DNA from: Centroscyllium fabricii
Taxonomy: Eukaryota
Direction of reading: 5' to 3'
Assembly: GCA_051313645.2 (NCBI GenBank)
Contig: JBNRSN020000025.1
Coordinates: 79,174,001-79,238,000, forward strand
DNA length: 64,000 nt
The stretch's first letter is position 1, and every line of letters begins with the position of its first letter. Position numbers and translations under genes: made by a program. Below, in pieces: positions 16,135 through 58,690 of this stretch. The notes under the pieces were generated by a model. It searched no databases. It saw only the letters and a list, made by a program, of their open reading frames with translations, and was not told the DNA's origin.

Positions 16135-17016
16135 CTCAAAGAGGTGATGAAATACCTTCCCCTGCTCATCACACAGAACCTCTGAGCCTCTCAGCCAAAT
16201 GAGCAAAAATATTAAGTGACCAGCATGAGAAGTTGCAAGTATTAATAAATCACACTGAAACTGCAATGATCTGCTGTCAATTTCAGGTCAATTTCATTAA
16301 TTTAAAATCAACCAAGCAGTTCTTTAGAGCTCCGTCAAACTCAAAGCCTCAGCATTGGTAAGTAGATTTCACAGTATAATTTTACTTCCTTAAAAAGGAA
16401 AAATGATTGGAATGAAATAACAATAAGAATCTACACAAAGGATAATAAATCCAACATGGGTCAGTTTATGTGACAGTCCCAAAAGAAAAATGAAAATCTA
16501 ATTTTTCTATAAATTTCTAATGCTGCACATTATAAAACACAATTGGAGAAAAGTATACAGCCACTGCAAAACTTTTAATTCAAGAGATCATGTCTGACTT
16601 TCTGTTTTCTTTTTAATAAAACCAAATAATTCCTCCATTCTCTTCCCCTGAGCTATCACTTCATAATTGACAGTAATGCACGGGATTGTAAAATTAATTT
16701 AATCTCCATACCATGCTCAGATTACCACAATTGTCATCAGCCACGTAATAAACTGTTTCATTCATAGCTAACAATTCCAGTTTTCCTTTCACTGACTAAA
16801 AATAACTTCAAAATTCCTGTAACTTTCCAAGTATTAATAAATGAAATGTTTTTTGAAACTGGATTGTGCTGTTTCTCCGCTTGCTTCTATGCAGCATCTG
16901 AAAGTAACAGAAAGTAACGTTTTCTATGTGTGTTCCCAGAAAAGGGCATTCGGGTCAAGAAAGGATGTATTCCCTCAAAATGCTCTAAGACCATTACCCT
17001 TTCCCTTTAATGTACG

Positions 17017-17108
17017 AAGTCACACAACACCAGGTTAGAGTCCAACAGCTTTATTAGAAATCACAAGTTTTCGGAGCGCTGCTCCTTCGTCAGGTGAAGT
17101 GAAGAGAT
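17017..17108 (-). mobile_element. Penelope-like pLTR fragment (family P1) with a hammerhead-like core
   Basis: Minus strand reads TCAC-CTGACGA-AGGAGCAGCGCTCC-GAAAACTT-GTGA; homologous to the arms at 38199-38635. Confidence 0.75.
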
Positions 17109-37727: not shown

Positions 37728-38249
37728 ATAATTGCCAAATTGTTCTTTTTGTCAAAATGCTATTGCTTCCTTTGTTCTGTATCAGCTATTCCATTGAAAG
37801 TGGACTGGGATCAGCTACTCGTAGGAAAGTCCGCATCAGAACAGTGGGGGGCGTTCAAAGAAGAAATTGAAAAAGTACAAAGGAAACATGTTCCCCAAAA
37901 GGTCAAGGGTGGGACAAATAAGCCCAGGGAGCCTTGGATGTCGAGCGATATACAAAAATTGATTCAGAAAAAAAGGGGGGCTTTTGGAAGGCATAAAGAA
38001 CTAAAGTCACAGGGGAGTTTAGAGGAATACAGTGGATGTGGTCTACATGGATTTTAGTAAGGCTTTTGATAAGGTCCCGCATAGGAGACTACTCAAGAAG
38101 GTAAGAGCCCATGGGATCCAGGGCAACTTGGCACAATGGATCCAAAACTGGCTTAGTGACAGAATGCGGAGGTGCCGGTGTTGGACTGGGGTGGACAAAT
38201 GCAAAAAGTCACACAACACCAGGTTTAAAGTCCAACGTTTTATTTTAAA

Positions 38250-38287
38250 TCACAAGCTTTCGGAGCTTTTGCCCCTTCGTCAGGTGA
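38250..38287 (-). ncRNA. Minimal type I hammerhead ribozyme motif
   Basis: UCAC-CUGACGA-A-GGGGC(AAAA)GCUCC-GAAA-GC-UU-GUGA: intact core, stems I and II, palindromic AGCU in place of stem III. Confidence 0.75.
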
Positions 38288-38545
38288 AAGAGAAACTAAA
38301 GTCAAAGATCACACACATGGGGGAGGGGAGAAATTTGATCCCATACATCCAACCCTAGAGCACACAAGCATATTAGCATACCTTAACACCTCAGTCTGCG
38401 AACAATGGGGCACAATTGCAAAACACAGAGTTCGCAGACTGAGGTGTTAAGGTATGCTAATATGCTTGTGTGCTCTAGGGTTGGATGTATGGGACCAAAT
38501 TTCTCCCCTCCCCCATGTGTGTGATCTTTGACTTTAGTTTCTCTT

Positions 38546-38583
38546 TCACCTGACGAAGGGGCAAAAGCTCCGAAAGCTTGTGA
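38546..38583 (+). ncRNA. Minimal type I hammerhead ribozyme motif
   Basis: Identical inverted copy of 38250-38287. Confidence 0.75.
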
Positions 38584-39851
38584 TTTAAAATAAAACGTTG
38601 GACTTTAAACCTGGTGTTGTGTGACTTTTTGCATTAGTGACAGAAGGCAGAGGGTGATGGTCAAAGGTTGCTTTTGTGACTGGAGGCCGGTGTCCAGTGG
38701 GATACCGCAGGGATCGGTGTTGGGTCCCTTGCTGTTTGTAATCTATATTAATGATTTGGATATCAACGTAAAAGGCATGATCAGCAAGTTTGCAGACGAC
38801 ACAAAGATAGGAGGGGTGGTAAATAGTGAGGAAGAGATCTGCAGGCTGCAGGGGGATATAGTGGAGCTGGTCAGATGGGCGGAACAGTGGCAGATGGAAT
38901 TTAACCCTGAAAAGTGCGAAGTGATGTATTTTGGCAGGACTAACATGGAGTGGGAATACACCATGAATGGTAGCACTCTAGGGAAGACAAAGGATCAGAG
39001 GGACCTTGGTGTACAGGTACACAAGTCCTTGAAGGCAGCAGGGCAGGTGGGTAGGGTGGTCAAGAAGGCATATGGGATACTTGCCTTCATTAGCAGGGGC
39101 ATAGAATACAAAAGTAGGGAGGTGATGATGGAGCTGTACAAAACACTGGTGAGGCCACAGCTGGAGTATTGTGTGCAGTTCTGGTCGCCACACTATAGGA
39201 AGGATGTGATAGCTTTGGAGAGGGTGCAGAGGAGATTCACCAGGGTGCTGCCTGGGATGGAGAGCCTCTGCTATGAGGATAGACTGGACAGGCTGGGGTT
39301 GTTTTCCTTGGAGCAGAGGAGGCTGAGAGGGGACCTGATTGAGGTGTACAATATCATGAGGGGCATAGATAAGGTAGATGGCGGGGAACTTTTTCCATTG
39401 GTGGAAGGGTCAATAACGAGGGGGCATAGATACAGGGTGAGAGGCGGGAGGTTTTGGGGGAATGTGAGGAAGAACTTTTTCACCCAGAGGGTGGTTGGAG
39501 TCTGGAACTCACTGCCTGAAAGGGTGGTAGAGGCAGGAACAGTCACAACGTTCAAGAAGCATTTGGATGTACACCTGAAAGGTTACAACATACAAGGCTA
39601 CGGTCCAAATGCAGGAAAGTAGGATTAGAATCGTCTAGGTTTGGATGGGTAGCACGGACGTGATGGGCCGAAGGGCCTCTTTCTGTGCTGTATGACTCTA
39701 TGACTCTATGACTCTATGACCCGGGAGGTACAGGGACTCACGCTCGCAGGCCTCTCCGGGTACAGAGGCCCACATATCTCAGGGTGCAGGTAGTTCACAA
39801 GCACCCCTGGGATCACGTGGGCCGACCCAACCAATAAACGAAGGGAATCAC

Positions 39852-52782: not shown

Positions 52783-53682
52783 GGGCCCTGTCTTCCTGTG
52801 CTCCAGAAGAGCTGCACCCCCACGAAGGGGGGTCAGAAATGCCTCGTGGGGGGGCAGCTCGGGTGATTACCAGAAACGTGAAATCCTGTGCTGATGGGCA
52901 AGGGGCTTCAGCTTCCTCCCCAGGAAGACCTTGAGCTGCAGACTTCCTGTAGTCAGCTGCTCAATATACGGGCGTATCACGTGGGGAAGCCTCTCTTTTG
53001 CTGCCCATATAAAAAGGAGGCTTAAGAAGCTGCAGGCAGCTTTGAAAAGTGAAAAAAACAGGTTTAAAGTTTTTTTTAAATGTATTCCTTTGGAGATATT
53101 TGTTTGTGGTCTTACAGCTTGTAAATGTGAAGGTTTATATATATTTTGGTGATAGTTAAAAAAATCGGGAATTTGAACGCGATGTCAGCCGCTCTGAGAG
53201 CTCTCAGAGCGGCTGACATCGCGTTCAAATCCCCGATTTTTTCACTATCACCAAAATGTATAAAAACCTTCACATTTACAAGCTGTAAGACCACAAACAA
53301 ATATCTCCAAAGGAATAAAAAAAAAAATAACTTTAAACCTGTTTTTTTTACTTGGAGCCAAAAAAACCCTATCAGCAAAAAAGGCAGAAACTTTAAAAAA
53401 CCAGCTTCCTACAAACTTAAAAAAAACAAAAAAAAGGTGCTTCCCTACCTGATAATCTTCATCCCGATGGCCAATTCTGTGTTTCGTTCGGGGGTAAAGC
53501 CGACCTCAGGGGGCGTGGCTTTCACCCCGGACCAAAAAAAAGACGTCCACTCCGAACGAAGAAAAAACGGGATTTCCCACAGGAAGTCCCGCTGAGAAAA
53601 AATAAATAAATCACGTGCGGGTGCGCCGTGGGTGCACGTCTGCACGCACCCGCAGCAATCGGGCCACAGGAAGACAGGGCCC
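52783..53682. mobile_element. Harbinger-type MITE with a central palindrome
   Basis: 18-bp perfect TIR GGGCCCTGTCTTCCTGTG; TSD not clean. Confidence 0.8.
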
Positions 53683-57727: not shown

Positions 57728-57820
57728 AAATTGTGATGTTTTTTTTAATTTATTTTAAGTTTCAGTGATATTTTGGGGCTTGTAGAATTCATAGTTTTGA
57801 CAGCTCTTCCTATCAAACTT

Positions 57821-57910
57821 GTGATTTAAAATAAAACGTTGGACTATAAACCTGGTGTTGTGTGACTTTTTGCATTTGTCCACCCCAGTCCAACACCGGC
57901 ACCTCCACAT
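57821..57910 (+). mobile_element. 90-nt Penelope-like (P1) pLTR 3' end plus tail
   Basis: 10-bp TSD TATCAAACTT; near-identical to the reverse complement of 38164-38253. Confidence 0.88.
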
Positions 57911-58690
57911 TATCAAACTTATGAATAGAGCATTCTCTGATCTGATTGGCTCTCCGTGGGCTACGTGATCTGTCGCACTAACTGCGCCACTGGGATACGA
58001 GAGCACAGTGCGCCGGCAGTTGAAGCAGGCCCCGCATTGGAATTCCACGCTCACAGCTCAACGTCCGGCGCGCTAGATAAGTGCCGGTCGGAGGCTTACA
58101 CTCGCAGGAAGCCTCCAACCCGAATTTCTGGGCCAATGAAAATAGGGGAAATAAAATGGAGGGCTTGTTAAGCGTTTGCTAATATTGGGGATATTGGGAA
58201 AACAGATCCATCCCTCTGGAACTCCCATCCAATTAGAAACAATTTGAAGAAGATTTTTTTTGTTAGATCTGCCTGTAATTTACAAACAGAAGCGTGAGTT
58301 TCCAGTATTTTCCTCTGTGTGTGAAGTTAAAGAAAAAATATTTTATTAACTTATCATAAAAAACAATGACAGTTTCATTACACAGAATTTCTTCACATGT
58401 CCACTTTCAAGAAACTATACCCCCAAGTCACAGTGCCACACTATCGGAATCAAACTGGCTGCTTTCTGAGCGATTCAAGAGGACATCCTGCTATCAACTC
58501 CCAACTGAAGCCTACGTTCACACATGGTCCTTGCAGACGGTCGTGACCTCCACACTCTGACTATTGTTGTTGCTCCAGCTCGATATGAAGCACGAGCTGT
58601 TTCCAAAACATGCCCATAGTTTCAGCATTGCAAGGCATATCTGTGGCAGACTTCGACTGGGAGCCCACGTACTGTAGATACTGTTGCTGA

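Follow-up and report, generated by a model that had tools for sequence, protein, structure and literature searches.

In the window (the whole 64,000-nt stretch of Centroscyllium fabricii DNA that we analyzed), a 90-nt insert starts exactly at the base that follows the predicted cut of a hammerhead ribozyme. This insert is, with good confidence, an ordinary 5′-truncated retrocopy, likely made from uncleaved RNA, and its start at the predicted cut is most likely a coincidence. Its source is a very abundant Penelope-like element, for which cleaved RNA is at most a minor template. Positions in the element are numbered from 0, the G after the predicted CUU^ cut, with plus values downstream. The insert and its flanks comprise the following features:

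57811-57820, + strand: left target-site duplication (TSD), TATCAAACTT, whose last 3 nt (57818-57820) equal the element bases just before the cut site
57821-57910, + strand: 90-nt 5′-truncated pLTR end of the Penelope-like element, running from the first base past the predicted cut to the tail end
57876-57910, + strand: tail of ~35 nt, missing from the forward arm that ends at 38634 (tail as defined in the available text of PMC11167929)
57911-57920, + strand: right TSD, TATCAAACTT, whose first 3 nt also fit the continuation of the element

When both strands of the window were searched, TATCAAACTT was present only at 57811-57820 and 57911-57920. The insert itself is a single copy that contains neither the ribozyme core nor tandem units, and it is 97.8% identical to a minus-strand arm at 38164-38253. 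Its first base corresponds to 38580, which directly follows GAAAGCTT within the 38546-38583 hammerhead. The TSD and the arm comparison agree with the initial annotation, which had described a 90-nt insert with perfect 10-bp TSDs that begins at the base after the predicted CUU^ site. The 10-bp TSD is far beyond chance; the start at the cut site is not. The microhomology that the annotation had given as a caveat is also present. The TSD ends in CTT, as does the element at -3 to -1, and these 3 nt of microhomology permit a 5′ junction at any point between -3 and 0. The 3′ junction also has more than one possible placement, with a TSD that starts TAT and an element that continues ACAT-YAT-G (at least seven bases of this continuation are matched in 74 of 100 unselected arms). 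Given 3 nt of microhomology at both ends, the element-derived length is 90-96 nt. The position of the tail between two RT start sites is inferred. Directly after the insertion, a GC-richer stretch at 57930-58150 carries two CCAAT-box-like words and may be a promoter.

Several lines of evidence identify the family. The RT domain PF00078 scores above cutoff in two long copies, and the RT ORF stops a few hundred bases ahead of the same pLTR, making the ORF contiguous with it. On the last 130 residues, PF01541 (GIY-YIG) reaches an E value of 1.4e-4 and 22.5 bits against a cutoff of 22.6; it was not reported when the whole protein was searched. Translations of long copies contain a CxxxxCxxC linker, which falls within the CX2-5CxxC pattern of Neptune/Nematis as defined in the available text of PMC8557442. 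A pLTR with an optional 30-40 bp tail, an inverted 5′-truncated copy, and a TSD are all present in the family, and 60 of 96 matches are inverted copies. One 4.2-kb inverted copy with a long RT-containing frame is represented by L207 and L006 (G000:C1:1338658-1342849). By pattern match, 169,464 arms in the 7.2-Gb genome match exactly from +26 to 0 across the site, and the 32-nt tail word occurs 63,276 times.

Longer copies in the window preserve the ribozyme that the 90-nt insert lacks:

38154-38645: longer copy, a head-to-head inversion with an 11-bp TSD at 38154-38164 and 38635-38645
38165-~38429, - strand: tailed arm of the longer copy
38430-38634, + strand: tail-less arm of the longer copy
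38546-38583, + strand: minimal type I hammerhead, with the layout given in the available text of PMC4209133
38250-38287, - strand: second hammerhead copy, in the inverted arm
17009-17098, - strand: older tail-less copy of 85-87% identity, with the whole hammerhead region kept and one change in helix III

In the plus-strand hammerhead, stem I pairs 38546-38549 with 38580-38583. The core CUGACGA (38550-38556) and stem II (38558-38571) are followed by GAAA and a palindromic helix III, and the predicted cut falls between 38579 and 38580. The older copy at 17009-17098 starts slightly upstream of stem I. Across the family, the hammerhead core is intact in 43 of 69 long arms; within these 43, stem II retains at least 4 of 5 pairs in 41, stem I at least 3 of 4 in 42, and helix III reads GCUU in 42. 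Rfam returned no hammerhead match in the window at E values up to 1. When the window copy is folded in silico as a monomer, stems I and II are predicted, and in the predicted dimer fold the shared helix III is not formed. The Penelope-like family, the minimal type I hammerhead, and the predicted cut position proposed in the initial annotation are borne out.

Two further observations concern other parts of the window. The sequence around the inverted copy (37800-39200) resembles a CR1/L2-type LINE. At 53150-53250 lies a near-perfect 100-bp palindrome, where an Rfam mir-3913 match under the gathering score reflects the hairpin only.

The ~170,000 arms of the family allow the cleavage question to be approached by counting breakpoints. 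An arm is said to end at a given position when its match to the element stops there under maximal extension. Counted arms fit the element to the given base and mismatch at all five positions from -9 to -13, a filter with a pass rate of ~28% as estimated from base composition. The window's own 90-nt copy fails this filter, as do most random flanks, and so lies outside the counts. Individually listed arms come from the assembly's first contigs, mostly C1. Cumulative counts were 5,254 from +12 (control, 26), 3,622 from +4, and 2,316 from 0; from -4, we obtained 1,246 with a shorter anchor, or ~1,175 on the same anchor (49 of 52 common rows). With 169,464 arms, 2,316 of them ending within 0 to -8 and passing a filter that admits ~28%, roughly 95% of arms continue past the site.

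At single positions, 393 arms end at 0, 211 at +2, and 192 at -1, the last counted with an anchor one base shorter (binomial p ~1e-13 or smaller for 393 against 192 and 211). We compared these counts with a null simulation in which cDNA ends were uniform, mutation was 2%, the class shares were assumed, and homology preference was given three strengths; it was scaled to the interval +4 to -8 and run with one variant reference copy left out (an artefact at +5). The null expects 222-246 arms at 0, which makes the observed 393 a 1.6-1.8 fold excess. The corresponding expectations are 207-252 at +2 (observed, 211), 245-259 at -1 (observed, 192), 757-817 for the bin -1 to -3 (observed, ~748), and 1,078-1,244 for +4, +3, and +1 together (observed, 1,095); for -4 to -8 the null gives 1,193-1,238. 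Position 0 is the only tested bin from +4 to -8 that lies clearly over the null, and the pooled excess at the cut base is real. Over a thousand arms start at 0, enough for a case like the present one to turn up in some stretches of DNA. After filter correction all 393 amount to <1% of arms, and the excess itself is an estimated ~0.2% of arms. A wide filter placed 23 of 98 rows in +4 to -3 and 16 in -4 to -15 (hand tally; 2 of the 100 rows were intact copies carrying insertions and were set aside); this filter is biased toward junctions onto stem I sequence, and its -24 to -28 bin was discounted for that reason. Separately, 5′ ends across the family at +12 to +5 number about half of the null (1,606 versus ~3,050), with a step just before stem I.

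The excess at the cut base sits in inversions and duplications. Of the first 27 loci examined at position 0, 18 were inversions, 5 were deletions or duplications, 3 had simple flanks, and 1 was a point mutant. At +2 the first 30 loci were divided into 17 inversions, no deletions or duplications, 11 simple flanks, and 2 point mutants, and at -1 the first 29 into 19, 2, 7, and 1, respectively. Simple TSD-flanked copies account for 1 of 27 at 0, 3 of 30 at +2 (where one point mutant and one doubtful 8-bp TSD were dropped), and 4 of 29 at -1 (where one misclassed copy was added). Scaled up, these fractions correspond to ~15 copies at 0, ~21 at +2, and ~26 at -1, with wide, overlapping intervals. 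In a nested sample from 0 to -8, the 100 matches listed of 2,316 included 16 simple TSD copies, none of which ends at 0; read by hand, 3 end at -1, 2 at -2, 2 at -3, 2 at -4, 3 at -7, and 4 at -8. Among the seven copies that end at -1 to -3, the TSD extends to the cut base in one, and the other six include bases from the element's sequence upstream of the cut for which the target does not account. Blunt junctions at -1 could stem from cut RNA if a single untemplated base was added. At the cut base itself, L157 is one clean and blunt case with flanking TSDs, and three more loci are compatible with such a junction (L215, L263, and L382). The initial annotation had proposed a histogram of 5′ ends and had named the lack of an excess at this base as evidence against cleavage. 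For the whole family that lack is incomplete: an excess is found in pooled junctions (393 versus 192 and 211) and none in simple TSD copies.

These data bear on the origin of the window copy. Our preferred explanation involves an endonuclease that would make a 10-nt staggered cut at the target, followed by target-primed reverse transcription that likely starts at the tail end on uncleaved RNA. The cDNA would extend at least 3 nt beyond the cut site, and its AAG would pair with the CTT of the target, likely leading to microhomology-mediated joining; repair would then trim and seal the joint. For a cDNA that runs past the cut and is joined under the guidance of homology, the CTT match is expected, as a hand count of 17 TSD junctions free of filler found 4 with microhomology of at least 3 nt.

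The initial annotation had instead suggested that the copy records reverse transcription of the self-cleaved 3′ product. Such a copy would start at the tail, run off after 90 nt at the 5′-OH, be joined bluntly, and carry CTT by chance. The geometry is suitable, since the cut precedes the inner start by 55 nt and the tail end by 90 nt; conservation of the motif is also seen (43 of 69 long arms have the core, and 42 of 43 read GCUU), and the pooled counts show the 1.6-1.8 fold excess at the cut base. Against this, a cDNA terminating at the cut would lack the AAG needed for pairing with CTT, and under cleavage the match becomes a 1.6-1.8% coincidence, or 1 in 55 to 1 in 60. The expected excess is also missing from the simple TSD class to which the copy belongs (0 of 16 at 0; 1 of 27 at the cut base, as against 4 of 29 and 3 of 30 at neighbouring positions, all small numbers), and the -1 to -3 bin into which it falls by maximal extension matches the null (~748 versus 757-817). 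Finally, metazoan minimal hammerheads are described in the available text of PMC4209133 as showing no monomer cleavage and low dimer cleavage. Taking the excess at position 0, ~0.65 of background, as the prior for cleavage, we consider an origin of the window copy from cleaved RNA improbable and the inference of the initial annotation unsupported. A later deletion that removed the 5′ part of an originally longer copy is very improbable: internal deletions or duplications occur in 12 of 211 matches, and here a complete left TSD directly adjoins the insert and both TSD copies are perfect. An identity as a non-LTR retrozyme was ruled out by the single 90-nt copy lacking the core.

For the family as a whole, it is possible, though we hold it only tentatively, that a small share of transcripts (an estimated ~0.2% of arms) is cleaved and becomes visible in fold-back insertions. 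The strongest hint that still speaks for run-off at a cleaved end is a recurrent joint: two arms, one with its start at 0 and the other at +15, are joined head to head through a shared AC. By hand count this joint accounts for 23 of the 100 rows listed from the 393, which would correspond to ~90 copies or about a quarter of the excess, a share inflated by the fact that the joint passes the filter every time. The nine copies examined (L140, L146, L148, L149, L159, L160, L162, L165, and L166) have different flanks, TSDs in most cases, and at least three sequence variants, and are independent. The arm at the cut is without a tail in all nine, and its partner is tailed in seven. Corresponding junctions with 1-nt homology are scarcer, at 5 of 100 listed rows at -1 and 2 of 100 at +2. 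Under cleavage, an inner-primed cDNA would run off at the cut, and its terminal AC would anneal to the GT end of a tail-primed cDNA.

Several features of this joint weaken the case for cleavage. The 2-nt microhomology allows the end to be placed at 0, +1, or +2. If tail-primed RT paused at +15, the edge of an A-run, and its product paired with the nearest AC, an identical joint would arise from uncleaved RNA; this route explains the joint equally well. Stem I complementarity and a downstream GTGA repeat add homology at the cut base, and other recurrent junctions are equally common (+3/+8, 4 of 100 listed rows of 3,622). More generally, 78 of 132 inversion junctions contain filler, a large part of which was copied from AT-rich sequence close by, and this marks the junction bases as repair products.

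The main concentration of 5′ ends lies upstream of the cut. Among 100 unselected tail-anchored arms, 27 end at -25 to -48, and the 24-nt bins on either side hold 7 and 6 (p ~1e-5), although alignment limits between subfamilies may shift some of these ends. Only 1 of the 100, an inversion, ends at 0 to -3, and 3 end at +4 to -3, giving per-base end rates of ~1.5% at -25 to -48 versus 0.4% at +4 to -3. Copies that end in the hotspot keep the cut site intact, which means that their template was uncut. In the window's long copy the hotspot corresponds to about 38532-38555 and spans the 5′ strand of stem I and a CT-rich tract. Candidate explanations are a transcription start or RT stalling at the ribozyme. 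An untemplated G, the signature of a cap, found no support at the TSD junctions of nine TSD-bearing unselected arms, a small sample. About 47 nt upstream of the cut (38536-38538), a YAG follows a pyrimidine-rich stretch and recurs across subfamilies, resembling a 3′ splice site. For Drosophila Penelope, the available text of PMC4209133 places an intron end at helix I.

The element resembles several known systems. Like the EN+ Penelope-like elements described in the available text of PMC8557442 and PMC3846280, it shows 5′ truncation, a TSD of ~10 bp, one tailed arm, head-to-head inversions, 5′-junction microhomology, and an RT that precedes a CX2-5CxxC linker and a putative GIY-YIG-like domain; it differs in that the present copy is extremely short and the family copy number very high (169,464 arms). 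With Anolis Poseidon PAc, as far as the available text of PMC11167929 describes it, the element shares a tail between two internal RT start sites, an upstream hammerhead, and AT-rich targets, whereas its Zn-finger-like linker is of the Neptune/Nematis type. The hammerhead resembles the metazoan PLE minimal hammerheads in the available text of PMC4209133 in its core (CUGANGA plus GAAA), the additional base that precedes stem II, a short stem I, a palindrome in helix III, and single and opposite-strand copies genome-wide; by comparison, stem II is 5 bp in the present element, whose hammerhead is predicted to cleave. Non-LTR retrozymes likewise carry a type I hammerhead and derive from PLE pLTRs, according to the available text of bioRxiv 10.64898/2026.07.22.740005, whereas they consist of tandem hammerhead-bearing units and the present insert is a single truncated copy without the core.

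Our literature search, which drew mainly on openly available papers, turned up no work that places genomic 5′ breakpoints against the hammerhead cut of PLEs. For the anole element, the available text of PMC11167929 reports that ribozyme mutants had no effect on insertion, that unprocessed RNA was the dominant substrate, that no RNA-seq reads started or ended at the cut, and that cleavage requires the protein. Our counts agree with the in vitro result for that element.

These results bear on whether animal Penelope-like elements have minimal hammerheads that cut in vivo, a question that a single copy cannot decide. It is conceivable, if doubtful, that the hammerhead cuts a minority of transcripts in the germline, with most templates uncut, and that the record of this activity is the twofold 5′-end peak, including the ~90 fold-backs. 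The breakpoint counts provide two leads: the asymmetric recurrent fold-back joint at the cut base and the stronger 5′-end hotspot just upstream of the ribozyme.
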